Shown here: piece by piece, positions 13,292 to 28,028 of the stretch
How positions within the stretch are numbered: the first letter of the stretch is position 1
Layout: every line of letters begins with the position of its first letter
Made by a program: the position numbers and the translations under genes
Assembly: GCA_050185275.1 (NCBI GenBank)
Contig: JBFWZN010000004.1
Coordinates: 320,919-384,918 of the forward strand
Source: Vicinamibacterales bacterium
GTDB taxonomy: Bacteria > Acidobacteriota > Vicinamibacteria > Vicinamibacterales > UBA2999
Direction of reading: 5' to 3'
DNA length: 64,000 nucleotides
The notes under the pieces: generated by a model
Seen by the model: only the letters and a program-made list of their open reading frames with translations
What the model was told of the DNA's origin: nothing
The model's database searches: none

Positions 13292-13324
13292 GCCTGGCGA
13301 GGTCGCGACGCTCAGTCGCCAGGC
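13292..13324. terminator. 9-bp perfect hairpin between convergent fabH-like and last-cassette genes (bidirectional terminator or decayed terminal attC)
   Basis: gcctggcga ... tcgccaggc with a 15-nt loop; overlaps the stop codon at 13312..13314. Confidence 0.3.
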
Positions 13325-13812
13325 CGAGGCAGCCCAGCGTTCGAATCGAGCGCGAGTTCCATCACCACTTCCCCCTCGTCGAATTCGCCGGTGGGGCGAA
13401 ACCCGAGGGAGAGGTACAAGTGTTCGGGTCCCCCTTCACCCGGTACGTACGAGAGCGCCAGCTTCTTGAACCCCTTGCGGCGGGCGTGCTCGATGACGAG
13501 CAGCAGGGCCGCCCTGCCAATGCCCTTGTGCTGGTGCCTGGCATCCACCATGAAGCGCCAGACGCCGACTGCCGGGTTCTGTCGCGGCGGGTCCAGGAGC
13601 GAGTCGTCGGCCAGCATCACGAACCCCACGGGCTCTTCGTCAAGATAGATCGCTCTGTACCAGGCTTCAGGTGCGAAGAGGGCCTGGGCCAACGACACCG
13701 CGTTCGGCGCGACGAACCTGTTCTGATAGTCCGTGACCGCCAGTGCGGTCACCGCCCGCACGGTGCCTGCGGTGATCTCGCGCAATGTGACGCGCTCAGC
13801 GATGCCTGGCAT
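13312..13812 (-). CDS. GNAT-family N-acetyltransferase (cassette 19, distal end of array)
   Basis: Acetyl-CoA block RHQHKGIGRAALLLVIEHARRKGF; start set to ATG 13812 (GGAG just upstream) rather than GTG 13824. Confidence 0.8.
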   Translation of the reverse strand: MPGIAERVTLREITAGTVRAVTALAVTDYQNRFVAPNAVSLAQALFAPEAWYRAIYLDEEPVGFVMLADDSLLDPPRQNPAVGVWRFMVDARHQHKGIGRAALLLVIEHARRKGFKKLALSYVPGEGGPEHLYLSLGFRPTGEFDEGEVVMELALDSNAGLPRPGD

Positions 13813-13817
13813 CTCCA

Positions 13818-13876
13818 ACCTCACGTAGCGTTCACCGGGCGACTACCGCATGGTCCGGCTGAACGACCTGTCAGGC
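13818..13876 (-). repeat. Degenerate attC (site 18)
   Basis: Minus strand: R'' GCCTGAC (contains the TGA stop of ORF 13871..) ... inner arms cgttcagccgg/cccggtgaacg ... R' GTGAGGT; AAC/GTT triplets mutated. Confidence 0.45.
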
Positions 13877-14386
13877 CTCACCATTCAACGCCTCCGCATA
13901 GCGGGCCAGAGACCGGTTGTAGCGAGGCAAGTACTTCGAGAGCGCACTGAGGCTGATACACAGCGCCTCTCGCTCCCGTCCCAAGTCGGCCAGGGCCAGG
14001 GCCAGGAATGCTGCCACAGCCTGATCGAGTTCGTCCGACGGCTGCTGACGCTCAGTGAACAGCATCTCGGCCGCTTCCTCAAGACGCCCAAGGTTTCTGA
14101 GCGAGCTGGCCATCTGAATGCGCGCCCTGCGTCGCCGAAGCCCGGACAGCCCGGCCGCCAGTGACGCGGCATACAGGCTCACGGCTTCTTCCGGCGAACC
14201 CGTCGAGTCATGTGCCGCCCCCAGTTCGAACAATCCCACGGGGTCGCCCGCCGGCCGCTCGGCTGTGAGCTGGCGCATCGCGTGCACGAACTCGGCTGCT
14301 TCGCATTCGTCCAGGCGCGCCCAGAGATTGGACAGGCGACGTTCCCACGCGGCGTCTGGTGTGTGCATGGAGAGAGTGTGCACCAT
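13871..14386 (-). CDS. Helical-repeat (TPR-like) protein (cassette 18)
   Basis: Resembles proteins annotated as tetratricopeptide repeat protein (...RRRRARIQMASSLRNLGR..., ...AFLALALADLGRE...); start placed at ATG 14386 (14368 also possible), downstream of candidate attC 17. Confidence 0.55.
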   Translation of the reverse strand: MVHTLSMHTPDAAWERRLSNLWARLDECEAAEFVHAMRQLTAERPAGDPVGLFELGAAHDSTGSPEEAVSLYAASLAAGLSGLRRRRARIQMASSLRNLGRLEEAAEMLFTERQQPSDELDQAVAAFLALALADLGREREALCISLSALSKYLPRYNRSLARYAEALNGEA

Positions 14387-14442
14387 GAGGCCGTTTGCGG
14401 GGCGTGGCGCGGAGTCAACCGGGCGGCCGCGGATGGACGCCG

Positions 14443-14503
14443 TTCCAACGAGGTGCAGGATACGCAGGCGGCGTCTCGCGGGCACGGTGGCCATCCGTTG
14501 ACG
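14443..14503 (-). repeat. Weak candidate attC (site 17)
   Basis: Minus strand R'' CGTCAAC directly after the TAG stop of ORF 14504.., R' GTTGGAA; arm pairing is poor. Confidence 0.35.
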
Positions 14504-14920
14504 CTACGACGACGCGGCCTGGCCCTTCACGTGATTGGCGAAGTTGTCCAGGATGGCTTGCCAGCCCGCCCGCTGCTGTTCCTCAGAGTGGGTCTCCTCA
14601 CCATCGAAGGTGACCGTGACGAGCACGCCATCCTCCCGGTCCGTGAACTCCACCAGCGCGGTCCGGCCACCGAACTCGTACTCGATGAGCTTGTGCGGAA
14701 CCACTTGCGTGTAGACACCAGCGAAGTCGAAGCCAAATGAACCGTCCTTGGCTTCCATTCGGGACGAGAACTCGCCTCCGGGGCGTAGATCGACGCGTGC
14801 CGCTGTCGTGTGCCAATCAGGCGATGCGGCGTTCCAGGCCTTGATGTCCTCTGGCGTGGTGTAGCACTTCCACACCAGGTGCATCGGTGCAGTGACCACG
14901 GTGGACACGACGATCTTCAT
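14504..14920 (-). CDS. SRPBCC/AHSA1-like protein (cassette 17)
   Basis: AGGAGA 4 nt upstream of ATG; MKIVVSTVVTAPMHLVWKCYTTPEDIKAWN... matches the Activator-of-Hsp90-ATPase-homolog-1-like SRPBCC family. Confidence 0.8.
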   Translation of the reverse strand: MKIVVSTVVTAPMHLVWKCYTTPEDIKAWNAASPDWHTTAARVDLRPGGEFSSRMEAKDGSFGFDFAGVYTQVVPHKLIEYEFGGRTALVEFTDREDGVLVTVTFDGEETHSEEQQRAGWQAILDNFANHVKGQAASS

Positions 14921-14954
14921 GCTGTCTCCTGTGCACTAGAGCGCGTCATGTGAG

Positions 14955-15051
14955 GCCTCACGTGCCGGTTCAGCCGCGAGCGGCGCTCGCACCCCCGTCG
15001 GCCACCCAGCTCTGCCCGCCCCGCTCGCCGGGCTGCAGCGGCTCGTTGGAC
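14955..15051 (-). repeat. attC (site 16), core site degenerate
   Basis: Minus R'' GTCCAAC ... R' GTGAGGC; internal arms ttcagccgcgagcggcg / cgctcgccgggctgcagcgg resemble site 1. Confidence 0.6.
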
Positions 15052-15081
15052 GGCTGGTCGCGTTCAACGCAACGTTCGGCT

Positions 15082-15939
15082 TCACCGTAGCACGAGCGCC
15101 TCGGTGAGAAACGCTTCAACGCGGCGCGGGAGCTCGACGTGGAAGCCGTCCCGGTCGAAACCATCCGGGTCCGTTGCCGGCGGGAAGTCGGGGCGGCGCA
15201 TCTGCGCCGGGAAAGGCGTGAGGAATGAGTAGTGTCCCGCGCCCGGGACCACATCCAATGTCGCCGTCCCCCGCGTGAGCAGGCCCGCCAGGGCCTGCCG
15301 GATCGCAGCGGGCGGGGTCACGTGGTCCCGCTCGCCAGCAAGGACGAGCAGCGGCACCGATACGTCCGCCAGCGCTCCCGGGGCCATGAACCAGTCGGTC
15401 GCCGGCGCGAGGAGGACCGCCGCGCGGACCCGCGCGTCGGCGCGGGTCGGAATCGGCTGGCCGGAGCGTGACCACGGCCGACCGCCGACGAGGGCGAGCG
15501 CCGTGTAGCCGCCCATCGAGTGTCCGACGACGCAGGCGCGCGCGCCGTCAGCCACCTGGCCCAGGACCGGGTCGGCGAGCACCGCGTCGATCGCGCACGA
15601 CGCGTGCCGCGGGCGATCCAGCGCGGCGCGATCCGTGCCCGAGCGCGAGCGGTCATTCCGGTTATCCCCCGGGTGTTCGAGGCTGACCACGACGTAGCCG
15701 CTGATTGCCAGGTGCGTACCGATCGAGCGATAGAGCAGGTGGGATCCGCCGCCGCCGTGGGAGATCACGCAGGTCGGAAAGCGACCGGGAGCCGGCACCG
15801 CATCAGGCGTCGCCTCGAAGTAGTAGGGGCCGATCATCGTTCCGGTGGACGCCTGGTCGGTCGGGTACTGGACCACAGCCGGAAAGGGCGCGCCCCCCTC
15901 CGAGTCGAGGATCTCGAGCTGGCGGATGCCGGAGTTCAC
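15082..15939 (-). CDS. Alpha/beta hydrolase (dienelactone hydrolase / PAF-acetylhydrolase-like) (cassette 16)
   Basis: GTG start at 15939; nucleophile elbow GHSMGG. Confidence 0.75.
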   Translation of the reverse strand: MNSGIRQLEILDSEGGAPFPAVVQYPTDQASTGTMIGPYYFEATPDAVPAPGRFPTCVISHGGGGSHLLYRSIGTHLAISGYVVVSLEHPGDNRNDRSRSGTDRAALDRPRHASCAIDAVLADPVLGQVADGARACVVGHSMGGYTALALVGGRPWSRSGQPIPTRADARVRAAVLLAPATDWFMAPGALADVSVPLLVLAGERDHVTPPAAIRQALAGLLTRGTATLDVVPGAGHYSFLTPFPAQMRRPDFPPATDPDGFDRDGFHVELPRRVEAFLTEALVLR

Positions 15940-15986
15940 GATTCAGTCACGATCAGGGGTGTGTCGCGGAAGGTGCATGTGGTGAA

Positions 15987-16076
15987 GCGTAACGCCTGGC
16001 GATGAGCCGCGCTCGGAGCGCGGGAACGTGGCGCGGGCGAGCGCCCCCACGCGTAGGCTCCACCGCCTTGTCAGGC
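15987..16076 (-). repeat. attC (site 15), inverse core degenerate
   Basis: Minus R'' GCCTGAC (holds the TGA stop of the HicB remnant) ... R' GTTACGC; 3' arm gcgtaggctccaccgcc resembles subfamily B sites. Confidence 0.6.
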
Positions 16077-16235
16077 ATCGATGCTGATGAACTGACTCGT
16101 AGAGCTTGGCTGAGGGACCGGCTGGCCTCCCTCCCGCATTCCCTCGATGTGAAGTTCGACTGCCTCTCGCATCAGCGACTCCACTTCCTGTTGGCTCTCA
16201 CCCAGGTCACCGTCGACCGGACGGCCAGGATCGAC
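16071..16235 (-). pseudogene. HicB-family antitoxin remnant (N-terminal ~25 aa missing)
   Basis: Own translation: ...PGRPVDGDLGESQQEVESLMREAVELHIEGMREGGQPVPQPSSTSQFISIDA, the HicB/UPF0150 C-terminal pattern; no start for a full-length protein; abuts the stop of ORF 16237..17100 in another frame. Confidence 0.45.
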
Positions 16236-16236
16236 G

Positions 16237-17100
16237 CTATTCTGTGAATGCGGATTCGGCTCTCTGGCGCTTGTCCGGGTCTTGCGTCCCTCTCACGTGA
16301 TTCCATAGCTTTGTCTTCAGGGCATTCGGTACTTCTTTCAAGCCCCCGGGGCGTTGCTTCCTAAACGACCATCCTCCGAACAGGCGCGCAGCTCCCTCCG
16401 TTTGTGCGGAGGTCACGCTGGACAACTCGAAGGCCTCGACGAGGCTCCTGGTCGGATACGCAAGGAGGAGCTTTTCGGTTGCCATCTCGTAGAACGGGAC
16501 GCCTGACCAAGGACCCGCTCCTGAACCAAACCATTCGAGCAGGGCACGAATGCGTTTCGGTTCATCTGGCAGCCCCCGTTCAAGAGCGCCCTCCAGCATT
16601 TCAACATCCACCTCCCCAGGGAGTCGTAAGGCCTCTGCCCAGAGCGGGACGATCGCCTCCGGCATCGCGGCCAGCCATCTGTCCCAGTTGCGCTTCTGCT
16701 GCTCCTTCTGAGCCAGCATCCCTCTGACCTCGTCTCGAGGATCAGACATTCCACGGCTCTCGAACCACGATGCCCACTTCTCTACGTCGCCGATGCACAC
16801 GTCGCTGTCCCACAGCGAACAGCGCACCGTCAGGCCATGGTGGCTCGTCAGCTGTACGGGTTTACCGCGGCCCTCGTATAGATAGATGGCAGGCGAGCCG
16901 ATGCACATGCAGTGCAGCCATTCGTCTGGCGGCTCAAGGACCAGACTCCTCCTCAGATCGTCGATGTCTTTGCGATCGGTCGACTCGAACAGCGTAATCG
17001 CAGTGTCCCTCGGGTCCTCCTTGACCACGATCCTCACTGCCCTGGCCAATACACCGTCGAGCTCCGCGAGAACAACAGGCTTCTCCTTCTGCCTGGTCAT
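16237..17100 (-). CDS. Hypothetical protein (cassette 15)
   Basis: Track ORF trimmed to ATG 17100 with AGGAG 6 nt upstream; no domain recognised. Confidence 0.6.
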   Translation of the reverse strand: MTRQKEKPVVLAELDGVLARAVRIVVKEDPRDTAITLFESTDRKDIDDLRRSLVLEPPDEWLHCMCIGSPAIYLYEGRGKPVQLTSHHGLTVRCSLWDSDVCIGDVEKWASWFESRGMSDPRDEVRGMLAQKEQQKRNWDRWLAAMPEAIVPLWAEALRLPGEVDVEMLEGALERGLPDEPKRIRALLEWFGSGAGPWSGVPFYEMATEKLLLAYPTRSLVEAFELSSVTSAQTEGAARLFGGWSFRKQRPGGLKEVPNALKTKLWNHVRGTQDPDKRQRAESAFTE

Positions 17101-17203
17101 GATGTGCTCCTGGCGAACGCGATGCAGACACACGTGTTGCGGCCCAGCAGGACCGCGGCGTGATCCTATACCAGCCGCCGTGTGGTGCAGCTCCGGGCTA
17201 CTA

Positions 17204-17276
17204 GCCTGACGCCCACGCATCACCAGCGGCGCCTCCACGATCGCGCGAGCGCCGTCTGGTGCATGCGGTGTCAGAC
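17204..17276 (-). repeat. attC (site 14) with compensated GAC/GTC instead of AAC/GTT
   Basis: Minus R'' GTCTGAC (TGA stop of ORF 17271.. inside) ... R' GTCAGGC; arms gacaccgcatgcaccagacggcgc / gcgccgctggtgatgcgtgggcgtc pair well. Confidence 0.6.
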
Positions 17277-17642
17277 AGCTGGTTCGTGCGCTCCACGGAC
17301 ACGTACACGTCCCGGCTCCACGATCCAGAGTTGATGTTCGGCCCACTCTGCGGCCAAGACCGGAAGAACCCGGGCCACCAGCTGAAGCACCTGTCGTCGG
17401 CTGGGCTCGGCCGGTCGAAACACCACGATGCCGACGTACGTGCTCGGCGGATAGGTTCGGATATCGGAGAAATCGAGGTCGAGCGTAAAGAGCACGCGAG
17501 CCTCAGATTGGCAAGCCGCCCCGACCGTGGGATCGTCCGCGCCCGCGAGACCTTCGTCGTGAACGGTGTCGCAGATCCACCCGGCAGCGCGAAGGAGCTC
17601 GGCGGCCTCGAGCGGCACGTTCTCATCGAGCTTCGCGCGCAT
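17271..17642 (-). CDS. DUF5615-family (Mut7-C/PIN-like) putative toxin (cassette 14, gene 2)
   Basis: MRAKLDENVPLEAAELLRAAGW...; 9 nt downstream of a DUF433 gene, the usual pairing. Confidence 0.7.
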   Translation of the reverse strand: MRAKLDENVPLEAAELLRAAGWICDTVHDEGLAGADDPTVGAACQSEARVLFTLDLDFSDIRTYPPSTYVGIVVFRPAEPSRRQVLQLVARVLPVLAAEWAEHQLWIVEPGRVRVRGAHEPAV

Positions 17643-17651
17643 TCCCGGACG

Positions 17652-17879
17652 CTACGCAGGGAGGGGCAGGATCCGCTCTTGCGCTAGGTCGGCTGCATAC
17701 GCCAACGCCGCCTGAATGCCCTCCGCCGTCAGCGAGGGATAGCTCCGGATGAGCTCGTCGGCCGACAGCCCTTCCGCCAGATTCGCCAGGACCACAGCCA
17801 CAGGAATCCGCGTTCCGCGAATGCAGGCCTTGCCATGCAGCACAGCGGGGTCGACCGTGATGTGTTCGCGCCACTCCAT
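17652..17879 (-). CDS. DUF433-family putative antitoxin (cassette 14, gene 1)
   Basis: ITVDPAVLHGKACIRGTRIPVAVVLANLAEG is the DUF433 signature as recalled. Confidence 0.75.
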   Translation of the reverse strand: MEWREHITVDPAVLHGKACIRGTRIPVAVVLANLAEGLSADELIRSYPSLTAEGIQAALAYAADLAQERILPLPA

Positions 17880-17920
17880 GAACGTTTCCCGCTCGAAGGA
17901 TACCCGGAAGCCGTTCAGCT

Positions 17921-17992
17921 GTCTAACGACGCCACATCCGCCGCGCGCCGAAACGCATAACGCGGCGCGTCGGCTGCATTTGGTGGTTAGCC
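17921..17992 (-). repeat. attC (site 13)
   Basis: Minus R'' GGCTAAC ... R' GTTAGAC; 72 bp; plus-strand 3' arm cgcggcgcgtcggctgcatttggtgg (subfamily B). Confidence 0.85.
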
Positions 17993-18018
17993 AGACAGTC
18001 CCTCAGGTGCCGGCTGGC

Positions 18019-18633
18019 CTACGCCGGCGTGGACTGCGGCGGTCGAAGCATCGCCCAAGCCGGCGGTCCCCCTTTGCCGAGAGTCGCCTCCTCAAGGACG
18101 GCGAAGCCAAAGCGTTCGTAGAACGCCAGATTGCGAGGTTCGCTCGTCTCGAGATAGCACGGTAGTGACTCGCGATCGGCCAGGGCGAGCCCCTCGCGAA
18201 TGATTGCCGATCCGATACCCTGGCCGTGCAGTTCGGGATCGACGGCAACACCAAAGAGATACCAATGAGGCCCAGGAACCCGAGCCTTGTGGATCTTGTC
18301 CATCGCTTCGTTGGCCGCCACGAACCGGACGAAAGGCCCTAGCCCCGTGCGCAGCGGCACGCCGAGCATGCCAGCGCGAACCATCCCTGGAATCGTGATC
18401 CCCGGGCCTGGAGGGATCCAGACACATGCGGCCCTCGCGTCATGGGACGCTGCGATCCTTCCGTACCGCATGCCGTATTCGGCGAGAACGCGCATGAGTG
18501 CACGCGCCCCGGCAAGCCGCCCTGCCGCGTCTGGAAACACCCACGTGATCATCGGATCGGGCAAGAACGCACGCGCGAATGTCATGACCGCACGATCCAG
18601 CGAACCGCGGTCAAGCGGCTTGATGTCGGACAT
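18019..18633 (-). CDS. GNAT-family N-acetyltransferase (cassette 13)
   Basis: Block HGQGIGSAIIREGLALAD and C-terminal NLAFYERFGF. Confidence 0.8.
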   Translation of the reverse strand: MSDIKPLDRGSLDRAVMTFARAFLPDPMITWVFPDAAGRLAGARALMRVLAEYGMRYGRIAASHDARAACVWIPPGPGITIPGMVRAGMLGVPLRTGLGPFVRFVAANEAMDKIHKARVPGPHWYLFGVAVDPELHGQGIGSAIIREGLALADRESLPCYLETSEPRNLAFYERFGFAVLEEATLGKGGPPAWAMLRPPQSTPA

Positions 18634-18669
18634 CGAACGGCGCTCCCTTGGACACGTCGACTGTGGTCT

Positions 18670-18753
18670 GGCTAACGCGCAAAATGAGCCCCGCGCGTCG
18701 CGGCCATGATGGCCCAGACACGCGAGCGGGACGGCTCCATGTGGATGTTAGCC
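18670..18753 (-). repeat. attC (site 12)
   Basis: Minus R'' GGCTAAC (TAA stop of ORF 18748.. inside) ... R' GTTAGCC; 84 bp. Confidence 0.8.
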
Positions 18754-19260
18754 GCCGAGTCGTTTGCGAAGTCGAACTTCGAACAGTTCAGATCCGCCCA
18801 GTGTAATCGCCTTTGCGCTGCCGGGCTCGATGGCCAAGCCGATCGACTCGTAGAACGCGATAGCCTGCGCGTTGCTCTTCAACACCCACAGCGTGATCTC
18901 CGAAAGACCGGACGCATTCAAGTGTCTCTCCGCTTCGCGCCAGAGCCGTCGTCCTACGCCTCGGCGCCAGTGTGGAGGGTCCACGTGAACGGCCCAGACC
19001 TCCACGGTTGTCGGCAGGGCGTCCGAATCACGGCTCCGTGCGGCGCTGATCCCACCAAGCACCTGGCTCTCTTCCTCGACCACACAGGTCTCCGAAGCCC
19101 TTTGTTCAAGGTTCTGTCGCCAGAAGCTCTCCCGTTGCTCAACGGACAGCGAGTCCAGGACTGCCGACGAAACGATGCCCTGGTAGGCCACCTGCCACGA
19201 TTGGACGTGAATAGCAGCAATCGCCCGGGCATCTTCCAGTCTTGCTTGCCTAACACCCAT
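18748..19260 (-). CDS. GNAT-family N-acetyltransferase (cassette 12)
   Basis: MGVRQARLEDARAIAAIHVQSW..., block WRRGVGRRLWREAERHL, AIAFYESIGL. Confidence 0.85.
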   Translation of the reverse strand: MGVRQARLEDARAIAAIHVQSWQVAYQGIVSSAVLDSLSVEQRESFWRQNLEQRASETCVVEEESQVLGGISAARSRDSDALPTTVEVWAVHVDPPHWRRGVGRRLWREAERHLNASGLSEITLWVLKSNAQAIAFYESIGLAIEPGSAKAITLGGSELFEVRLRKRLGG

Positions 19261-19274
19261 GTGACTCGAGGTGC

Positions 19275-19346
19275 GGCTACCGCTGCGTTTCAGCCGCGGC
19301 GTCTCATAACCGCCAGACCCCCGACGGCTGCAAACGCCCGTTCAGT
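19275..19346 (-). repeat. attC (site 11), both core heptamers off-consensus
   Basis: Minus R'' ACTGAAC ... R' GGTAGCC; arms gcgtttcagccgcggcg / cgacggctgcaaacgc are typical of subfamily A. Confidence 0.6.
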
Positions 19347-19353
19347 TGCGTAA

Positions 19354-19827
19354 TCATGTGGACCACGCGAAGGGGCGAAACACCTCGATGAAGCACAACA
19401 CGAAGCCAACCGCCGCAACGACAAGGTGCAAGGAGATCCACCCCCAGTTGAGCCGCCACTCGTATAACCTCGGGAACTCTGCCTTCGCGATCTTGTGTGC
19501 TTCCTCGCGGAGAACCTGAGCGCGACCGTTCAGAACGCCCGAATCAAGCTCCTTGCGGATGAGGCTGGCTCTGCGCATGTGATCCTTGAAACGTTCGTAG
19601 TGCTTAGCACTCAGAACTGCTCCAAAAAGTCCAAACAGCGTCAAAGCTACAGTGTAGGGAAGGTCGCGGACATCCACGGACTTGTCTGCGAGCGCCAGAT
19701 TCGCAAGAGCCGCGGTACTGGCAATCACGAAAGCCGTCATCACACTACGTTGGGTCTCGTGATGCCGGCCATGCACACAATTCTCGTTGTAGAGAGCGAG
19801 CCACACTTGGGCTTCTTCGCTTTTCAT
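19354..19827 (-). CDS. Small membrane protein, unknown function (cassette 11)
   Basis: Trimmed to ATG 19827; three hydrophobic segments (AFVIASTAALANLALA, YTVALTLFGLFGAVL, WISLHLVVAAVGFVLCFI). Confidence 0.55.
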   Translation of the reverse strand: MKSEEAQVWLALYNENCVHGRHHETQRSVMTAFVIASTAALANLALADKSVDVRDLPYTVALTLFGLFGAVLSAKHYERFKDHMRRASLIRKELDSGVLNGRAQVLREEAHKIAKAEFPRLYEWRLNWGWISLHLVVAAVGFVLCFIEVFRPFAWST

Positions 19828-19879
19828 GATCGCCTCGGCCAACCAATCGCTGCCTTCGACTCCAGCCCGTCCCTTCTCC

Positions 19880-19939
19880 GCCGAACGGGCCGGTTCAGCG
19901 GCGGCGTCTCGTGCCGTCCGCTGCAACCGGTGGTTATGC
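19880..19939 (-). repeat. attC (site 10), 60 bp
   Basis: Minus R'' GCATAAC ... R' GTTCGGC; arms ccggttcagcggcggc / gccgtccgctgcaaccgg. Confidence 0.7.
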
Positions 19940-20030
19940 GTCTTCGTCGCTCTCCTTCTTCAACCTCCGCCTGGCAGGTTTGTTCTCAACGTCGAGCATG
20001 CCAAGGGCGCACTCCACAAGGACACCGCCC

Positions 20031-21130: not shown

Positions 21131-21177
21131 AGCCGCCACGATTCAGGCATATCCTGCCGCAGTTCCCGCCCTACGGG

Positions 21178-21699
21178 TCACTTGACGAAGAGCTCCATCG
21201 CCACGTCATCTAGGTATTGGCTTGGTCCGATCTTGATCCGATGCCGCCAACGCCCCATCTCCGTGAAACCCATCCTGAGGTAGAGCGCCTGCGCCGGTTC
21301 GTTCGACGATCGTACGTGAAGCTCGATCTTCTCGACGGTCTGGGCGGCCATTGCCCATTCGATCAATCGACTGAGCAGCTGTCGCCCGACACCCTGACGT
21401 TGCCAGCCTGGGTGAGTTACCAGGGTCACATGCACAACGTGGCGAGTGGCAGCGAGTGGCAGTGGATCGAGTACTCCGTGGCCGACGACTTTCCCCTGCG
21501 TCTCTGCGACGAGATAGCACCCGTTGTCGGCGCGACCGAGCGCCGCGATCTTCCGCGCAAATCCCTCGTCCGTCAGCTCCGCTGGCTGCGACACCAGAAA
21601 GCCAGGCTTCGCCGCAATCGTTCGTTCGGCTTGCGCCAGCACGGACGCGTCCTCGATGCGAGCCGGCCGGATCGAGATTCCTCTGTTCAACGGATTCAC
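21178..21699 (-). CDS. GNAT-family N-acetyltransferase (cassette 8)
   Basis: GTG start; block WQRQGVGRQLLSRLIEWA and ALYLRMGF. Confidence 0.85.
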   Translation of the reverse strand: MNPLNRGISIRPARIEDASVLAQAERTIAAKPGFLVSQPAELTDEGFARKIAALGRADNGCYLVAETQGKVVGHGVLDPLPLAATRHVVHVTLVTHPGWQRQGVGRQLLSRLIEWAMAAQTVEKIELHVRSSNEPAQALYLRMGFTEMGRWRHRIKIGPSQYLDDVAMELFVK

Positions 21700-21716
21700 G
21701 GTTTCACGACTTGTCT

Positions 21717-21788
21717 GCCCAACGTGCCGAATGGGCCGCGCGCCATCGTCGGCTCATGCGGCGCGTCGGCTCCATTTGGAGGTTAGGC
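21717..21788 (-). repeat. attC (site 7)
   Basis: Minus R'' GCCTAAC ... R' GTTGGGC; 72 bp; subfamily B 3' arm gcggcgcgtcggctccatttggagg. Confidence 0.85.
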
Positions 21789-21810
21789 AGCAACACACCC
21801 TGACACCCGC

Positions 21811-22536
21811 CTACACCTTGAGATGCGCGTGAAAGAAGGTTTCGATCCGTCGGCGCGCATCCGCGTTCGCCTGGGCGTCGTATGTCGTGTGTGACCACCG
21901 TGCCAGCGCGGTGAGGATCCACGGACCTTCGCCGCGACCGTGATCGTTCATGAAACCGTGACCGACGCCGGCGTACTCCTTCACGTCGTGCATGATGCCA
22001 TGTGATGTGAGCAGATCCTCAAGTCGCGCGGCGGTGCCCTTCAACGTGGGATCCTTTCCGCCGTAGCTCGCGACGATGGGGCACGCATCGGCGAGGCGCC
22101 GCCAACCGTCTTCGGTCGCCCCACCGTAATTCACAGCTGACGCCCCGTAGCCGTGCCCTGGCGCCAATGCCAGCGCCAACCCACCACCCAGACAGAATCC
22201 AATGACGCCCACGCGCCCCGTGCCCAGTTCGTGCGCCGCGAGCCACGCCTGCACAGCCGCGAGTTCGTCGAATGCAGGCCCACGAGTACCGCGCGCCAAG
22301 TCCCGCATTGTGCGGACGAGACACCGAAGGTGCCCGCCCCAATGGAACAGGTCCGGGGCGGCCGCTAGATAGCCGACGTCCGCGAGCCATCGGGCCTGAT
22401 TGCGCAAGTCCTCGGTCATGCCGAGTGCGTCGTGGACAACGACGACACCTGGCCACGGGCCATCATCGTCTGGTGTCGCCACAAAGGTGGGGATCTCGCC
22501 CCCGGAGCCGCCGGGAATCCTGGAGAGATGGTCCAT
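21811..22536 (-). CDS. Dienelactone hydrolase family protein (cassette 7)
   Basis: ATG 5 nt after core site; GFCLGGG nucleophile motif, C-terminal GVGHGF. Confidence 0.85.
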
Positions 22537-22541
22537 TGTCT

Positions 22542-22630
22542 GCCTAACGCTGGCGGTTCAGCCGCGGCGGCTCTCTTTGGTTGGCTTGGTCACAACCTGC
22601 GCCGCCGTCGGCTGCAACCGCTGGTTAGCC
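22542..22630 (-). repeat. attC (site 6)
   Basis: Minus R'' GGCTAAC ... R' GTTAGGC; 89 bp; the 5' arm GGTT[G]CAGCCG[A]CGGCG has two extra bases relative to its partner, as in classical attC. Confidence 0.9.
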
Positions 22631-23304
22631 AGTCGGCCGCCAACTCGCATGTACGGGGCGAATCGACGGCGCGACTCCTCGAACTGCTCGGTAAACCACA
22701 GCATAGCGTCGGCCCACTCTCTCGACAGCTGCGCCCGATCAGAATCTGGGGCTTCTCGCATCGCATAGAGAGCATGAAGCTGTACGGCCCTCCGATAGAG
22801 TTCCCGCAGGTAGCCGGCCAGATGATCGTCGAACAGGAACAGAGCCTCGTCGGTCTGCCGAGCGAACTCGAAGATTTTATCAAGCTCCAGGCGTCTGCCG
22901 TTCACGGCCTCGCGAAGAAACGCCTGCGTTGCACGATAGGCCGGAATTCGTCGGTCGAAGAGCTCAAGAGAGATGACCGGTCCTCGCGTCGTTTGGCCAC
23001 CGCTATCGGACCAGGTCAACGACGTGGCCATGTGCTCGTAGAGCATTCCGCGGTAAGTCAAGAGTTCATCGACGGTATGTCCCTTGGTCTGCCGAGACTT
23101 GGCGTCGTATCTGGCGTGATGTTTGGTACAGAGCCACGCTGCATTCGCCTCATCCGCGTTCGTCGCATCGCGGTCCACGTGGGCGATCTGACCCTCTTTC
23201 TCTAGCGTATCGCCATCTAAGCCGTAGCAGAGCGCGCACCGTCGCCTGCTGGCGACCAACACCGCGGCTACAACTGCCCCAGAAAACGGCCTTCTATTCG
23301 CCAT
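22558..23304 (-). CDS. HNH-like nuclease-domain protein with uncharacterised C-terminal domain (cassette 6)
   Basis: N-terminus CALC...IAHVDRD...NAAWLCTKHHARYD fits a CxxC/H-N-H zinc-finger nuclease pattern; the ORF reads through R'' and stops inside the attC. Confidence 0.55.
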   Translation of the reverse strand: MANRRPFSGAVVAAVLVASRRRCALCYGLDGDTLEKEGQIAHVDRDATNADEANAAWLCTKHHARYDAKSRQTKGHTVDELLTYRGMLYEHMATSLTWSDSGGQTTRGPVISLELFDRRIPAYRATQAFLREAVNGRRLELDKIFEFARQTDEALFLFDDHLAGYLRELYRRAVQLHALYAMREAPDSDRAQLSREWADAMLWFTEQFEESRRRFAPYMRVGGRLANQRLQPTAAQVVTKPTKESRRG

Positions 23305-23325
23305 CGCGTGATGTGGTCTTGATCT

Positions 23326-23442
23326 GGCTAACGACGCGCCGCGCGACGCCGCGTGATGCGCGGCGCGAGCGCAGAATGAAATGGCGCGCTCGCGACGGCG
23401 CCGCGACGACGTGTCACGGTCCGCTGCAACCGCTGGTTATGC
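23326..23442 (-). repeat. attC (site 5), long (117 bp)
   Basis: Minus R'' GCATAAC ... R' GTTAGCC; GC-rich central palindrome. Confidence 0.8.
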
Positions 23443-23460
23443 GGCATTCGCGATGACCTC

Positions 23461-23916
23461 TCAACCTGACCTGGCACTCTGCGGAAGATAGTTAACCAAC
23501 TTCTCAGGGAACAGGCACTGGCTGCCCTTCACGAATTCGCTCACCGGACGCCACGCCACGTGGTTCGTGACGCCTCCGTCCACAAACGAAGACGTGATCG
23601 TGGGCTCGAGCCCACGCTCCAACAGTTCTGCTTCAAACGCGAAAACAACCTCGTGACCGCGCGCTCCCTCATGGCTATACAGGTTCTCGAGAACGCACAA
23701 CTGCTTGACGCAGCGGACATGCCTTCCGATCTCCTCGAGAACTTCACGCGCGACCGCTTCCTCGGCCGACTCGCCAAACTCGATTGCTCCCCCAAGCGGT
23801 CGCCATCCCTTCACGGCGCCAGCATCGTCTTTCACGGCCATCACGAGCACGTCCGTGCCCTGATAGATGAGCGCGACGGCAATCACTCTGATTCGCTGCG
23901 GAGGACGCCACTGCAT
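23461..23916 (-). CDS. NUDIX hydrolase (cassette 5)
   Basis: Complete Nudix box GAIEFGESAEEAVAREVLEEIG (Gx5Ex7REUxEExGU). Confidence 0.85.
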   Translation of the reverse strand: MQWRPPQRIRVIAVALIYQGTDVLVMAVKDDAGAVKGWRPLGGAIEFGESAEEAVAREVLEEIGRHVRCVKQLCVLENLYSHEGARGHEVVFAFEAELLERGLEPTITSSFVDGGVTNHVAWRPVSEFVKGSQCLFPEKLVNYLPQSARSG

Positions 23917-23986
23917 CAGATCTGAGACTCCATGCGGAATAGTGATTGTGGGCTCCTCACGAAGCTACGCCGACCCCAACCATGAC

Positions 23987-24055
23987 GCATAACGGTAGGC
24001 ATCACCAGCCGCGCGGGACGATCCCGTGCGCGGCCTGGTGCATGCCGCGTTAGGC
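23987..24055 (-). repeat. attC (site 4)
   Basis: Minus R'' GCCTAAC (TAA stop of ORF 24050.. inside) ... R' GTTATGC; arms ggcatcaccagccgcgc / gcgcggcctggtgcatgcc. Confidence 0.85.
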
Positions 24056-24958
24056 ATCTTCTTCGACGCCATCAACGACGGACACCCGCCCCCGCTTCAG
24101 CGCGGTATCAGCAGGGAAGTACTGCGCGTACAACTGCGCGATCCGCCAAGCAATCGAGTTCTTGTTGATCTCGAAGCCGCCTCCGGCAACAAGGATGGGC
24201 AACGGCAGCGAATAGCGCCCGCCGTCGCAGCTTACATACGGAATGCGTCGGAGCACCGTTGTTCCGTAACGTAGCTCGACTTCATAGCTGTGGGCCGACG
24301 GATCCGGAAAGACCGTGGTCCAGGATTCCCGAAACGATGGGTTCAAGGTGGCACCATGCACGACCGTGAACTCCGGAAAGTCCCTGTGATACAGATACGT
24401 CTCGCCACCGACCTTTACCCAGGCATCTGGGTTCTCCAGAAGGCGGTATGCGCGACGAAGCGGTGGCAGTCCGATGCCGAAGCGCTCCCGCCACGCCAGC
24501 TCGGTCGCGGCCTCGGACGCGCACTCTCGGAGAGGACAGTTGGTGTCCCCGATTCGGGTGTACACCACGCCAGCCCTGATGGTCTGGTCTCTATGGGTCT
24601 TGTCGGCTAGCAGGAAGAAGGGCTTATCTGGTCGATTCTCGATCGTGAGAACGTCAATCTCGTGACCATTCAAGGTGTGCGTTGAGATCGCGACTGTCGG
24701 AAGACGATTTAGCCGAGAGGAGCGCAGCAGGTCCTGAATCTCGGCGCCTCGACGGCGATTCTGATCCTCCTCGATGCCGATTATGTCACCGTTGTTGGCT
24801 ACGCCAAACACTAGGAAGCGCCGGCTCTCGGCCCATGCGTTGGTCAAGCACAGAATGTCATGCAGTAACGACAGCGTGTCCTCGTGGTGGACCCGCTTGA
24901 AGTCAAGCCACTCGCACTCGGTTGTTTCGACTAGGGCGTCGATGTCCATGTCCAGCAT
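24050..24958 (-). CDS. AlbA_2 / Schlafen-like putative DNA-binding protein (cassette 4)
   Basis: ATG immediately follows core site GTTAGGC; N-terminal ETTECEWLDFKR resembles the AlbA_2 (PF04326) E..LEFK motif; remainder unassigned. Confidence 0.6.
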   Translation of the reverse strand: MLDMDIDALVETTECEWLDFKRVHHEDTLSLLHDILCLTNAWAESRRFLVFGVANNGDIIGIEEDQNRRRGAEIQDLLRSSRLNRLPTVAISTHTLNGHEIDVLTIENRPDKPFFLLADKTHRDQTIRAGVVYTRIGDTNCPLRECASEAATELAWRERFGIGLPPLRRAYRLLENPDAWVKVGGETYLYHRDFPEFTVVHGATLNPSFRESWTTVFPDPSAHSYEVELRYGTTVLRRIPYVSCDGGRYSLPLPILVAGGGFEINKNSIAWRIAQLYAQYFPADTALKRGRVSVVDGVEEDA

Positions 24959-25030
24959 GCCTAACGACCCCAACTCAGCCGCGCATCGCCACGCGACTCG
25001 CGGCGCGTCGGATGCATTTGGAGGCTAGGC
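24959..25030 (-). repeat. attC (site 3), inverse core mutated
   Basis: Minus R'' GCCTAGC (AAC changed to AGC; provides the TAG stop of ORF 25025..) ... R' GTTAGGC; subfamily B arm. Confidence 0.75.
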
Positions 25031-25579
25031 ATCGGATTCTACCCGTTCGAGAATCAACTGGCTCACTTCATGCGGACGCCACTTGAAGTGATACTCGATT
25101 AGCTCTTCCTCGAGGCCGTCAATGGGCTGAGGCTGAGCCGTGGCCCTGGCAAACAGAGACAGTGTCTGTCGATGGTTAGCGATGGCCTCGCCAGCGGACT
25201 CGAACTCACACCAGCGACCGGGGTGCCACGTGCCGACGCTGCTCAGCACTTTGACGTAGATCGACATGGCGGGCGCGTGCCCGAGCCGCGCGAGCACCTC
25301 GCGCAGGCACACGCCCTCGACGACCACTAGCTCAGTGAGTTCGCCTAGACGCGCACCCAACTCAGGGTACCGGATCCGGTCAAGGTAGCCGCCCTGGTTC
25401 CTTTCCAGGAACTTGTCGACCTCGACATACTCGCACGATACCGCCTGGGCGAGGGCGCTTGCGAGGGTCGATTTCCCCGAGCCGTCCCAGCCGTCAACGG
25501 CGATCAGGCCATGCGGCTCGGTGTCGCGGACGAGCCGGACGACCGTGTCGAGGTCTCTCACGACCGTTGGCGTATTCAC
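25025..25579 (-). CDS. P-loop NTPase / small kinase-like protein (cassette 3)
   Basis: GTG start; Walker A VDGWDGSGKSTLASAL. Confidence 0.7.
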   Translation of the reverse strand: MNTPTVVRDLDTVVRLVRDTEPHGLIAVDGWDGSGKSTLASALAQAVSCEYVEVDKFLERNQGGYLDRIRYPELGARLGELTELVVVEGVCLREVLARLGHAPAMSIYVKVLSSVGTWHPGRWCEFESAGEAIANHRQTLSLFARATAQPQPIDGLEEELIEYHFKWRPHEVSQLILERVESDA

Positions 25580-25596
25580 TCGTGTGCGTTCCGTAT

Positions 25597-25671
25597 GCCT
25601 AACGACCGCAGTTCAGCCGCGGCGCGCTCAGGATGCCACCGCGCGCCGTCGGCTGCAACTGCTGGTTAGCC
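25597..25671 (-). repeat. attC (site 2)
   Basis: Minus R'' GGCTAAC (TAA stop inside) ... R' GTTAGGC; 75 bp; arms gcagttcagccgcggcgcg / cgcgccgtcggctgcaactgc. Confidence 0.9.
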
Positions 25672-26538
25672 GGCATCGTTCAAGACCTGAATTCGACCTG
25701 TGCTCAGTTGGTAGGCGAAAGTCTCCATCAAGAAGTCAGCGAGTGTTTTGGCTGCGTTTACGGCGAGCCTCGCGTGGTGCCGTTCCGGCCGATAGCTCCG
25801 GGCGTGAGCATCGCCCATCTTGTTCCGCATGGGTGCGAGGCCGGAGACGATGCTCGACAGACCGGCCAATACCTGCCGCAGGCTGTCGGCGATGTCGGTT
25901 CTTGCGGGATCGAGGTTGAGTAGCTTCTGGACACGTTTGTAGAGCCTTGGCAGATCGCCGTCGTACGCCGGTGGCTGCTGGACCAGCCGGGCTTCGATGG
26001 CAATCAGGACGGCCTCGACCAGCGAGCGTGCATTCGTTATGGCTCCATCGTAGTCGCCGTCGCGAAGCTTGCGGTCGCACTTCGACAACTGCTCGTCGAT
26101 AAACTCGTGCGATGTGGGATCAAGGTGGCTGAGCTTCGCCTCAACGGCTACTAGCTGCTCGCCCAGACGGCGCAAGCGATAGTGGCCCGCGCTGAGTACG
26201 AGCTCAAGGCCGTCGTACGCCAGGTACTTGTTGAGGTATTCGACCGCGCTCGACGCTTCAAACGGTGTATCGAAGAACCGCGGTGGGTATACCGAGCCCT
26301 CAATTGCGTCGGTCAGCTGGGGCGTCTCGTTTAGCTGCTCGAGCTTGGCCTCCGCGTACGCCCACCTCGACGGAAATCCTTGGCCGTACGTTTCGTTGAA
26401 GCCGAACTCGTTGAAGAACTCGACCAGCTTCGGGCCGCTCAGGTAGGGCGCCAGCGGCCCGGCGTTCGTGTCGAACTTGTCGCCCGTAATGACGTGCTGG
26501 ATGGCGGAGATAGTGCGCTTCGAGATCTTGGGCGACAC
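25666..26538 (-). CDS. Abi_C / HEPN-domain abortive-infection-like protein (cassette 2)
   Basis: GTG start; C-terminal LAPMRNKMGDAHARSY...HHARLAVNAAKTLADFL = Rx6H HEPN-type motif of the Abi_C (hypoth_ymh-like) domain; N-terminal ~150 aa unassigned. Confidence 0.7.
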   Translation of the reverse strand: MSPKISKRTISAIQHVITGDKFDTNAGPLAPYLSGPKLVEFFNEFGFNETYGQGFPSRWAYAEAKLEQLNETPQLTDAIEGSVYPPRFFDTPFEASSAVEYLNKYLAYDGLELVLSAGHYRLRRLGEQLVAVEAKLSHLDPTSHEFIDEQLSKCDRKLRDGDYDGAITNARSLVEAVLIAIEARLVQQPPAYDGDLPRLYKRVQKLLNLDPARTDIADSLRQVLAGLSSIVSGLAPMRNKMGDAHARSYRPERHHARLAVNAAKTLADFLMETFAYQLSTGRIQVLNDAG

Positions 26539-26573
26539 GGATCAGGCTTCGCGGGCTAAGGCGCTCGTTGTCC

Positions 26574-26675
26574 GGCTAACGTTCTGCCGCTCAGCCGCGA
26601 GCGGCGGGGTCGAAGTGTACCGCACCGGCGACCCGCGTACGCCCGCCGCTCGTCGGCTGCAGCGGCGGGTTAGGC
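26574..26675 (-). repeat. attC (site 1, integrase-proximal)
   Basis: Minus R'' GCCTAAC (TAA stop inside) ... R' GTTAGCC; 102 bp. Confidence 0.85.
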
Positions 26676-27134
26676 GTCCGCACGCAACGCGACCCGATAG
26701 CGGCACTTGCGCCGCTCGCCCTCGAGGTACATGTCGGAGTCCGGTGGAAGGTCCACTGTCTCGACGAGTTCCGCGCCGGCGAGCTCGCAGGTTCGCCTGG
26801 ACGCCCAGTTGTCCGGGTTGCACGTGATCCACAACTCGGTCATGCCGTGCGCGCGCGCGAGCGGCAGCAGCAGTCGCAGGCTGCGCGACGCGAAGTGGTG
26901 GCCACGATGCGCCGGGCGCACCCCGTACGCAATCTGACCGCCGACGTTCACCATGGCAGGCGTCGCGCCGAGCCGGAACTCGATGTCGCCGGCGACCTCG
27001 CCCGCGACGACTAGGTCGAAGCGATAGGCGGGCACCCACGCTCTCGCGGCATCCCCCGGGAATCGCTCTCGCAGACGCAGGTGCAACTCGCCATCGAGAA
27101 GCGTGCCTGGGTCGCGAAACTCGGTACTGATCAT
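26670..27134 (-). CDS. GNAT-family N-acetyltransferase (cassette 1)
   Basis: ATG 7 nt after the first GTTAGGC junction; HRGHHFASRSLRLLLPLARAHG and WASRRTCELAGAELVE fit a GNAT core. Confidence 0.75.
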   Translation of the reverse strand: MISTEFRDPGTLLDGELHLRLRERFPGDAARAWVPAYRFDLVVAGEVAGDIEFRLGATPAMVNVGGQIAYGVRPAHRGHHFASRSLRLLLPLARAHGMTELWITCNPDNWASRRTCELAGAELVETVDLPPDSDMYLEGERRKCRYRVALRADA

Positions 27135-27141
27135 CCCGTGC

Positions 27142-27448
27142 GCCTAACTACTTACTAACTGGACGTCCGGTACGTCCCCTCCCAGGCTTCGCCCCCCTGA
27201 GCTACACCGCGTGCCCATCGGCCGCAAGCTGTTGAGTGGGCGGAGTCTAGCACTCCGAAGTGGGAGCGACAACGGATTCAGTCACCGCGGCGCGGTGAGC
27301 CGGCCATAGCTGCGGGGCCGGTCAGGCGTATGAGGGAGCTGGTGTGGGGCGTCTTCAGGCGGAAGTACCAGCCGGAGAAGGGATTAGGGCTTGAGAAGGT
27401 CGTATCGGGAGGATGTGTATACCTGCGAAGCCCGCGCGGTATAGCGGG
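27142..27448 (-). other. Candidate attI / cassette-promoter region (non-coding spacer between intI remnant and first cassette)
   Basis: Minus strand ends ...CCAGTTAGTAAGTAGTTAGGC|gcacgggATG; no credible ORF; several short hairpins (e.g. ggacgt-ccggt-acgtcc at 27161..27177). Confidence 0.4.
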
Positions 27449-27790
27449 TCAGAGCCGGTCTGCGGGGCTTCGCACGCCTAATCCACCCCGGTTCAGAACG
27501 TGGGTGTAGATCATCGTGGTGCTGACGTCGGCGTGACCGAGCAATTCCTGCACCGTCCTAATGTCGTAGCCGTCCTCGAGCAGGTGCGTGGCGAACGAGT
27601 GTCGAAACGTGTGGCAACTCGCCCGCGCCGCGATGCCGGCCTGCCGCACCGCCCGCATCAGCCTCGCCGGTGCATGCCGTGATCGCCCGTCACGCGGAGC
27701 CGCCCCTACTCGCGGCGCCGGCGACAGGGTACGAGCGTCGTCAGGACTTCCGGCGTGCGGAGCCGGAGGCTCATGGGCCGGCCGGCGGGG
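27449..27790 (-). pseudogene. intI: Integron integrase (intI) C-terminal remnant
   Basis: Last 72 aa [69 protein letters not shown] carry tyrosine-recombinase box II (HxxR, LLGH, catalytic Y) plus the IntI-type tail GVRSPxDxL; upstream similarity fades; the next gene ends at 28152, so no room for the N-terminal ~200 aa. Confidence 0.85.
27654..27785. repeat. Direct repeat unit 1 (period 243 bp) overlapping the intI remnant
   Basis: cgcatcagcctcgccggtgcatgccgtgatcgcccgtcacgcgga...cggcgtgcggagccggaggc recurs at 27897 with a few substitutions. Confidence 0.85.
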
Positions 27791-27896
27791 CGCGGCCGTC
27801 TCACGGACCGACTGCGACGCACGCCGACACGGCTCGCCTGAAGTCGTGGCGACGCGACGACCCGCCGCGAGTCCGTGCCCCACGATCCGTGACGCT

Positions 27897-28028
27897 CGCA
27901 TCAGCCTCGCCGGTGCGTGCCGTGATCGACCGTCGCGCGGATCCGCCCCTACTCGCGGCGCCAGCGGCAGGGTACGAGCGTCGCCAGGACTTCCGGCGTG
28001 CGGAGCCGGAGGCCCGTGGGGCGGCCGC
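27897..28028. repeat. Direct repeat unit 2 (copy of 27654..27785)
   Basis: Near-identical ~130 bp; encodes a second ...[35 protein letters not shown] segment in the same frame. Confidence 0.85.

Follow-up and report, generated by a model that had tools for sequence, protein, structure and literature searches.

Integrons that stay at one place in a chromosome are by now familiar objects. In Xanthomonas, they occupy a fixed locus and carry co-oriented, promoterless cassettes that vary between relatives, their attC sites form one homogeneous family, and the integrase gene, intI, is often inactivated; such sedentary chromosomal integrons with decayed integrases have been described (bioRxiv 10.1101/2025.06.18.660453). 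In the inverted-integrase type, that of Treponema denticola, intI runs along the direction of the cassettes and attI lies downstream of the intI stop codon, an arrangement discussed by Cury et al. 2016 (PMC4889954). Where attC sites cluster without an integron integrase, IntegronFinder speaks of a CALIN (a cluster of attC sites with no integron integrase), which has ~5 sites on average (PMC4889954, PMC9024848); intI pseudogenes lay near 15 of the 279 CALINs surveyed by Cury et al. (PMC4889954). Chromosomal integrons with taxon-typical attC sites have already been recognized among Acidobacteria, and there is a covariance model specific to the attC sites of that phylum (Ghaly et al. 2021, PMC8352920). 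Here, we ask one question about an array of palindromes and small genes in a 64-kb stretch of contig JBFWZN010000004.1 (the window, by which we mean that whole stretch): what is it, and what has become of its integrase?

We argue, with a probability that we would put at roughly 0.93, that the sequence from 13275 to 27660 is an inverted-integrase integron of the sedentary chromosomal kind, with intI, attI, and cassettes all on the minus strand, fixed between a fabH gene and a SnoaL-domain gene and with its intI now reduced to a remnant. Directly supported are an attC family with its structure and strand, what remains of intI, the boundary at attI, the conserved position of the locus, and a complete turnover of cassettes relative to genome GCA_021733565.1 (hereafter the relative). 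The kind is already known, both as a sedentary chromosomal integron and as a CALIN with an intI pseudogene, and the locus is a new example of it, not a new class, notable for its inverted layout, its truncated integrase, and the clarity of the comparison with the relative. The initial annotation did not recognize the array as a described integron, which stands for this particular locus and not for its kind, published before (PMC8352920, PMC4889954).

Comparison with Described Integrons

The likeness to the Xanthomonas integrons extends to everything listed above; the differences are that the window probably belongs to Acidobacteriota and not to Gammaproteobacteria, that its flanks are fabH and the SnoaL gene, that intI points the same way as the cassettes and is not divergent from them, and that no match to the attC of a plasmid cassette turned up when one attC site was compared by blastn with 72,556 plasmids. 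The arms of the sites in the window (TTGCAGCCGAC...CGGCTGAAC) resemble what we take to be the TTCAAGCCGAC type of aadA7. The aadA7-type attC has been placed by Ghaly et al. in a Xanthomonadales-like clade (PMC8352920).

With the inverted type, the locus shares both the direction of intI and the position of attI. It departs from that type in that its intI is only a remnant and in that its IntI relatives at 53-65% identity show both geometries, so the orientation of intI is not a clean clade marker here. Among 80 metagenome loci with such IntI relatives, the covariance model described below gave 54 matches, with ~22 loci having co-oriented sites downstream of intI, ~8 having divergent sites upstream, and none having any other geometry. 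We considered whether the co-orientation in the window was an artifact of a local inversion, and we rejected this idea, as it is common to the relative, Gemmatirosa, and the ~22 metagenome loci.

The closest IntI in the plasmid collection, 58% identical to that of the relative (IntI1 is 49% identical), is encoded on plasmid 1 of Gemmatirosa kalamazoonensis KBS708 (NZ_CP007129.1). There, at least 27 regularly spaced attC-like sites of ~96 nt, recognized by our model and all on one strand, lie downstream of a co-oriented intI (L091, 16433-30186), and since they continue up to the limit of the DNA that we fetched, the array is larger still. It differs from the window in having an integrase untruncated over the 257-aa query span, in its location on a megaplasmid, in its longer and more uniform attC sites, and in its host, a member of Gemmatimonadota.

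By the terminology of IntegronFinder (two or more sites <4 kb apart), the locus would be called a CALIN with an intI pseudogene; no two neighbors among its 15 supported sites are separated by more than ~1.3 kb, and the integrase remnant falls below the cut-off. Like any CALIN, it is an attC cluster without a functional neighboring intI, and it differs from the usual one in being much larger than average, in having attC sites that are homogeneous and not heterogeneous, and in an origin by loss of intI that the relative documents. What the locus offers is a well-bounded chromosomal integron from a poorly cultured lineage that is abundant in soil and sediment; the integron concept itself is unchanged.

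The attC Sites

Read on the minus strand from 28200 to 13200, the palindromes that follow each single open reading frame (ORF) have the form GSCTAAC-N-TTGCAGCCGACG...CGCGGCTGAAC-N-GTTAGSC. All 15 copies of GTTAGSC in the window lie within 17986-27148 (~5.2 are expected in the window, and none of 100 shuffles reaches 15), and the loose consensus GTTRRRY is not enriched across it (53 found vs. 50 expected). The signal is, therefore, a specific family and not the degenerate consensus under which the initial annotation had grouped the core heptamers.

From the 11 clearest sites, we built a covariance model, R1, in which the R-box helix and the spacer/L-box helix found by RNAalifold carry seven compensatory pairs, and we searched both strands of the whole window with it, filters off. 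At E ≤ 2e-4, R1 yields 15 attC sites, every one of them on the minus strand and within 15987-26675. It recovers its 11 training sites at 42-87 bits, the same sites scoring 13-23 bits on the plus strand, and it finds four sites on which it was not trained (17204-17276, 19880-19939, 19275-19347, and 15987-16076); elsewhere in the 64 kb, no match has an E value below 0.4. As a negative control, we used 1.3 Mb from 80 high-guanine-plus-cytosine (GC) loci of metagenome-assembled genomes (MAGs), which are the fabH-anchored loci (fabH up to 80% identity) obtained from 185,579 species genomes; in these, R1 gave a single weak match (E = 0.004), and we saw no synteny beyond fabH and no arrays.

The sites are 60-117 nt long. 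Counting from the integrase side, the first (26574-26675, 102 nt, GCCTAAC...GTTAGCC, 56.3 bits) has a bottom-strand fold with two bulged bases, and the second (25597-25671, 75 nt, GGCTAAC...GTTAGGC) is the strongest, at 87.2 bits on the minus strand and 20.3 on the plus strand. Then come attC 3 (24959-25030, GCCTAGC...GTTAGGC, 68.2 bits), attC 4 (23987-24055, GCCTAAC...GTTATGC, 44.8 bits), attC 5 (23326-23442, GCATAAC...GTTAGCC, 117 nt with a long variable stem, 42.5 bits), and attC 6 (22542-22630, 68.4 bits), the one dissected in the initial annotation, with G and A as the extra bases of its 5' arm. There follow four sites (attC 7 at 21717-21788, 62.7 bits; attC 8 at 21058-21130, 66.8 bits; attC 9 at 20031-20104, 66.7 bits; and, of those untrained, attC 10 at 19880-19939, 60 nt, R' GTTCGGC, 45.4 bits, E = 1e-8), the last of which closes a cassette of ~90 nt without an ORF. 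The untrained attC 11 (19275-19347, 31.3 bits, E = 3e-5) has a degenerate R', GGTAGCC, and a perfect GTTAGGC stands 27 nt past it at 19248-19254, inside the start of the next GNAT ORF, where it may be left over from a site that was fused or in part deleted. Beyond attC 12 (18670-18753, 54.2 bits) and attC 13 (17921-17992, 75.7 bits) lie two more untrained sites: attC 14 (17204-17276, GTCTGAC...GTCAGGC, 47.5 bits, E = 4e-9), in which both core triplets are mutated and still pair, and the degenerate attC 15 (15987-16076, GCCTGAC...GTTACGC, 28.1 bits, E = 2e-4). Loss of the AAC/GTT triplets is seen in several distal sites (GTCTGAC..GTCAGGC, GCCTGAC.., and ..GTGAGGC).

Rfam at gathering thresholds matched no family anywhere in the window; strict pairing of RYYYAAC with GTTRRRY found four sites only, because many R'' boxes are GGCTAAC; and an inverted-repeat finder missed the attC sites because of their bulges.

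The structure is borne out by covariation. In an alignment of 31 sites from five loci, which was fitted to the model and hence leans toward the structure, 90.8% of cells are paired (73.4% when shuffled), the covariation score is 0.408, a value reached in 0 of 500 shuffles (0.118 when shuffled, and no more than 0.084 with slid partners), and 11 of 16 pairs show compensatory double changes. The helices are also asymmetric in the way that the initial annotation had described from attC 6, where arm alignment confirms it: on the minus strand, most sites have two single extra bases in the 5' arm, a G and, 6 nt from it, an A (TT[G]CAGCCG[A]CG). The spacer is longer on the 3' side, and comparison of the 5' arm with the reverse-complemented 3' arm gives one to three extra bases next to R' on that side. 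Together with the unpaired central spacer, these extras have what we take to be the geometry of a canonical attC, such as that of aadA7. The annotation had also proposed folding the plus strand, and DNA folds of that strand do bulge the complementary C and T. From this extrahelical-base geometry, the plus strand of the window is predicted to be the recombinogenic bottom strand, in agreement, as had been claimed, with the orientation of the ORFs. Taken together, the 15 sites answer to the description of attC sites as imperfect palindromes with R''/R' cores, paired L boxes, an unpaired central spacer, extrahelical bases on one arm, and a variable terminal stem, and the three distal palindromes discussed below do not.

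R1 also reaches beyond its own locus. It picks out the attC of dfrA14, a cassette in a class 1 integron, where the annotation places the end of that cassette and with the correct strand (29.2 bits, E = 1e-4), gives weak but correctly placed matches for two aac(6') cassettes, and misses blaIMP-1. The covariance-model search that the initial annotation had suggested as a check thus comes out positive and strand specific, with R1 recognizing a class 1 attC and the Gemmatimonadota array besides.

The Relative and the Limits of the Array

Further evidence comes from contig JAKFZD010000383.1 of the relative. It carries a homolog, 95% identical, of the Dcp peptidase (window 31823-34042) and a FabH protein 94% identical to ours, and it is collinear with the window on both sides at 90-93% identity, in the order fabH, array, attI, intI, tandem repeats, SnoaL, PhoX, and Dcp. 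Homology ends at window position 13274, one base past the fabH stop codon, and again at 27138. Because it is absent from the relative, the distal zone (13813-15051, minus strand), in which three weak or fossil palindromes stand among cassette-like ORFs, belongs with the rest; the whole of 13275-27141, including this degenerate zone and the terminal GNAT gene, reads as the variable array (13.9 kb, ~19 intervals), bounded by the homology breaks and filled with attC matches and co-oriented minus-strand ORFs. The corresponding array of the relative is 7.2 kb long, with nine significant and two marginal R1 matches on one strand, and no cassette is common to the two arrays, which are similar only from attC to attC and in one kinase match at 37%. 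Presence or absence of cassettes in related genomes had been named beforehand as a check, and the outcome is the same locus with wholly different cassettes.

Composition follows the same limits. The GC content of 13275-27137 is 63.4%, and that of the flanks is 71.9% and 71.0%; the relative shows the same contrast (62.8% in its array vs. 71.5%). By 1-kb steps, everything from 14 to 28 kb is below 70% except 15-16 kb (0.71), and the range between 16 and 27 kb is 59-65% in a window that is ~71% overall; the drop that the initial annotation had seen is real, but its figure of 50-60% was too low. The two flanking genes were named correctly. On the distal side, fabH (12149-13273, plus strand), for β-ketoacyl-ACP synthase III, matches NCBIfam PRK09352 at 366.7 bits and TIGR00747 at 335.6 bits; on the integrase side, the SnoaL-domain gene (28152-29147, minus strand; Pfam SnoaL, E = 1.4e-12), with a terminator-like hairpin at 28104-28131, is syntenic and ~92% identical in the relative.

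The Integrase Remnant and attI

An integrase C terminus was said to lie at the upstream end of the array, and it does. The 216-aa ORF at 27449-28099 matches the IntI model TIGR02249, at positions 243-315 only and with 121.8 bits against a cut-off of 265, and because true homology to the intI of the relative begins at 27660, the remnant is the last 70 codons (27449-27660, minus strand, co-oriented with the cassettes). Only this part is securely intI; the IntI similarity at 27661-27721 was rejected, as that stretch belongs to a 239-nt tandem repeat. A tblastn search with a joined IntI from another locus found no other intI-like segment and no N-terminal part in the window. The window thus holds an adjacent remnant and no integrase that passes the IntI-specific model, and because all that is left is 70 codons, the element cannot recombine by itself.

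Between the remnant and the array lies the platform spacer with attI (27142-27448, minus strand), which aligns with that of the relative at 75% identity, in conserved blocks, through ...AGTAGTTAGGC (27142-27148, the heptamer GTTAGGC) and then becomes unrelated. That the alignment runs to this heptamer and stops points to 27142-27148 as the probable attI crossover, and the pair of genomes, in this way, fixes this position and the two array boundaries to the base.

The relative has kept more of its integrase and has lost it too. Its intI, co-oriented with its cassettes, has an ORF of 257 aa that scores 339.5 bits on TIGR02249, above the cut-off, and upstream of that ORF, two stop codons (TAA and TAG) and a frameshift interrupt the first ~60 codons. 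By this comparison, the platform is ancestral and now inactive in both genomes. About 2.1 kb of the relative is missing from the window: genes for DUF2442 and DUF2283, a 177-nt fragment of the 5' end of fabH, and intI codons 1 to ~187; the deletion junction falls at a short string, GATGCGGGCGGTGCGG, common to the repeat and intI. Over the 69 shared codons, intI has 11 synonymous changes and one nonsynonymous change, its DNA being 94% identical vs. 75% for the adjacent spacer; in fabH, there are 79 synonymous and 22 nonsynonymous changes in 375 codons. The 11:1 pattern suggests that purifying selection acted on the integrase during most of the period after the two lineages split and that its inactivation was recent and separate in each; a recent loss of this kind would also account for the complete turnover of cassettes.

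The 239-nt repeat that abuts the deletion junction is present in the window in ~1.6 copies (27650-28040), between the SnoaL gene and the platform. Some 15 nt at one end are complementary to the other end, and each unit folds as a single long hairpin. In the relative (L088, 15943-16979), there are at least four copies, at 92-100% identity, and among all of the DNA that we fetched, the repeat was found at this locus only. Tandem Repeats Finder reported none in the window, because fewer than two copies remain.

The fabH fragment of the relative, 177 nt long, is a copy of codons 1-59 (L088, 18043-18219, which is L089, 19691-19867) and 90% identical to that genome's own fabH; it lies ~110 nt upstream of the intI start and divergent from it. 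The integron of the relative therefore stands between a complete fabH and a 5' fragment of fabH, the two in direct orientation; in the window, the fragment is lost. This layout may be a clue to the arrival or duplication of the platform, although we could derive no simple rearrangement that yields such an order.

How the Array May Have Formed and What Else It Might Be

In our reading, the cassettes would have been captured one at a time by the integron integrase, the folded bottom strand of each attC (the plus strand of the window) recombining with attI at G/TTAGGC (27142-27148). The outcome would be an array of ~19 cassettes, promoterless and co-oriented, each closed by an attC site of one homogeneous family and expressed, presumably, from a promoter upstream of attI. 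A deletion of ~2 kb beside the 239-nt tandem repeat has taken all of intI but its last 70 codons, at a time that the substitutions in intI would place in the recent past. Since that loss, the array cannot recombine except through an integrase supplied in trans, and its distal attC sites are decaying toward the high GC of the host.

Several things weigh against this account, and we set them out together. R1 was trained on sites of this very locus, and of the roughly five class 1 attC sites that we examined, just one received a significant score from it. The initial annotation counted 18 attC sites, of which R1 supports 15 statistically; the other three palindromes, all distal, are without such support (14955-15051 scores 13.7 bits at E = 0.5, and 14413-14503 and 13813-13876 receive no score). 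A scan of 27000-28200 limited to the σ70 consensus, a proteobacterial type of promoter, found no match upstream of attI. Three metagenome runs from the same site contain a single identical cassette order, and no recombination was observed. Finally, we place the host in Acidobacteriota, order Vicinamibacterales, as the most likely one from its best protein matches only: after the relative, the next-best FabH match (82%) is a Vicinamibacterales MAG, and the named Dcp matches (65-67%) come from Acidobacteria and Gemmatimonadetes.

Could the palindromes be nothing more than generic repeats of the REP (repetitive extragenic palindromic) or BIME (bacterial interspersed mosaic element) kind, or terminators, in a low-GC island that was acquired horizontally? 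They are GC rich, intergenic, and downstream of ORFs, and an unrelated palindromic repeat is indeed dispersed in the window (5493-5647, 41826-41969, and 47788-47935). We give this idea almost no credence: the attC family is absent from the remaining ~50 kb of the window and has one weak match in 1.3 Mb of other MAG loci, so the scatter that had been named as evidence for ordinary repeats is not seen in this DNA; the sites have a strong strand bias, conserved asymmetric bulges, and covariation; R1 recognizes a real attC; and in the 80 IntI-bearing metagenome loci, all 54 matches are in canonical integron geometry. It is hardly more credible that a low-GC array was joined to a high-GC contig by faulty binning or assembly, the source being a metagenome and the GC dropping by 8 points inside the array. 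Short-read assemblies of the three runs match 18274-25640 and 12937-17989 at 100% identity, so that an independent assembly spans the junction between array and fabH, and a separate MAG from another project has the same order of flank, integron, and flank on one contig. (The runs of the source sample are cited in a paper about landfill metagenomes.) The interpretation as a chromosomal integron that the initial annotation had offered is favored alike by the covariance matches, the lack of scatter, and the turnover of cassettes.

Two other proposals keep the integron and change its history. According to one, the array is still exchanging cassettes through the action in trans of a second integron integrase, intact and with its gene at another place in the genome, so that loss of the local intI would not make the array a fossil. 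Thirteen sites keep intact AAC/GTT triplets together with high model scores, turnover relative to the relative is complete even though both local copies of intI are damaged, and genomes with multiple intI genes, as well as CALINs in replicons that encode IntI, are documented (PMC9024848, PMC4889954). Nevertheless, we consider this unlikely: the 64-kb window contains no second intI, the three runs from the site have an identical cassette order, and the 11:1 pattern lets the local integrase, before its recent loss, explain the turnover. According to the other, which we find more doubtful still, the whole array was replaced in one step after uptake of foreign DNA, by homologous recombination in the flanks (fabH on one side and the intI/attI platform on the other). 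This would produce sharp breaks of homology at both ends and leave no common cassette even distally, as we see, and the spacer is only 75% and fabH 90% identical vs. ~93% for genes further out. However, on the integrase side, homology breaks off exactly at the GTTAGGC crossover, as exchange by an integrase predicts and homologous recombination does not require; synonymous divergence at the 3' end of intI (11 in 69 codons) is similar to that in fabH (79 in 375), which fits vertical inheritance of the two together; and 75% in a noncoding spacer is within neutral expectation. We, therefore, prefer to leave the sedentary integron with a recently lost integrase as the explanation.

Cassette Contents

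The initial annotation had one minus-strand ORF in nearly every interval, and so it proves: over the ~19 intervals, the ORFs are all on the minus strand, they start 0-104 nt past the preceding core site, and there is one of them per interval, save for the empty interval of ~90 nt at 20031-19939 and a cassette with two genes of a toxin-antitoxin pair. The latter, cassette 14 (17271-17879), encodes a DUF433 protein, the putative antitoxin, and a DUF5615 protein, the putative PIN-like toxin (Pfam E = 5.5e-25 and 9.1e-21). Six cassettes encode GNAT acetyltransferases, and others encode a P-loop kinase, a dienelactone hydrolase, an α/β-hydrolase, an AHSA1/SRPBCC protein, and a TPR_5 protein; three cassette proteins have no family match, and one cassette has no ORF.

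Some cassettes look like defense genes, each compact and on the minus strand. Cassette 2 (25666-26538) is AbiJ- or Abi_C-like (Pfam Abi_C, E = 6e-22; PADLOC AbiJ, E = 2.4e-30), cassette 4 (24050-24973) is of the Schlafen/AlbA_2 kind (Pfam E = 5.9e-11; PADLOC PDC-S50, E = 2.3e-67), and cassette 9 (20099-21139) encodes a 5'-nucleotidase of family PF06189 (Pfam E = 3.8e-125; PADLOC PDC-S08, E = 1.4e-134); a NUDIX hydrolase in cassette 5 matches PADLOC PDC-S07. A content of GNATs, toxin-antitoxin genes, and defense-like genes is typical of integrons. It provides the AbiJ-like protein and the matches to PDC-S50, PDC-S08, and PDC-S07 as compact candidates for phage defense, along with a toxin-antitoxin pair and several unassigned proteins, and it fits the proposal that chromosomal integrons are reservoirs of defense genes (bioRxiv 10.1101/2024.07.02.601686).

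Between the 287-aa ORF at 16237-17100 and attC 15, the stretch 16076-16236 contains a short frame ending in ...AVELHIEGMREGGQPVPQPSSTSQFISIDA. It resembles what we take to be the C terminus of a HicB-type antitoxin, and it may be a remnant of a further decayed cassette.

Integrase Decay Elsewhere

How unusual is it for such an integron to lose its integrase? The 120 best matches that the remnant has in the database are, without exception, short ORFs (66-139 aa), many of them on contigs of 0.1-4 Mb. We entertained the thought that a short IntI C terminus might be a conserved miniprotein in itself, and we rejected it: the three contexts that we inspected (one from Vicinamibacterales, one from Gemmatimonadota, and one on a 2.6-Mb contig; L085, 9290-10228; L086, 9900-10213; and L087, 9700-10339) are intI pseudogenes, each decayed differently, with frameshifts, stops, and truncations at different places, and each stands beside R1-positive sites. 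Decay of the integrase may, then, be the rule in the integrons of Vicinamibacterales and Gemmatimonadota.

One might go further and imagine that arrays of this kind stay dynamic without a local integrase, being serviced in trans or swapped wholesale through the flanks of fabH and the platform, and that loss of the local intI is recurrent and tolerated, or even favored, in these two groups. The basis for such a view is that flanks ~92% identical enclose wholly different arrays, that the two integrases are broken differently, that intI has its 11:1 pattern, that the best 120 matches to the remnant are all short, and that the three contexts inspected hold differently decayed pseudogenes; we hold it to be speculative and on balance improbable. 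Exact matches of the cassette proteins led only to the same population.

Other Features of the Two Genomes

Upstream of fabH, the relative has a gene for a 479-aa protein of the Na+/sulfate symporter family between the M50 peptidase gene and fabH (L089, 8565-10004); in the window, that gene is absent at 12105-12149, and the M50 peptidase gene is followed directly by fabH. The dispersed palindromic repeat mentioned above is ~150 nt long and partly self-complementary, with 84-93% identity between its copies; it looks like a miniature inverted-repeat transposable element or a REP-like element unrelated to the attC family, and it also occurs in the relative (L089, 3035-3214).

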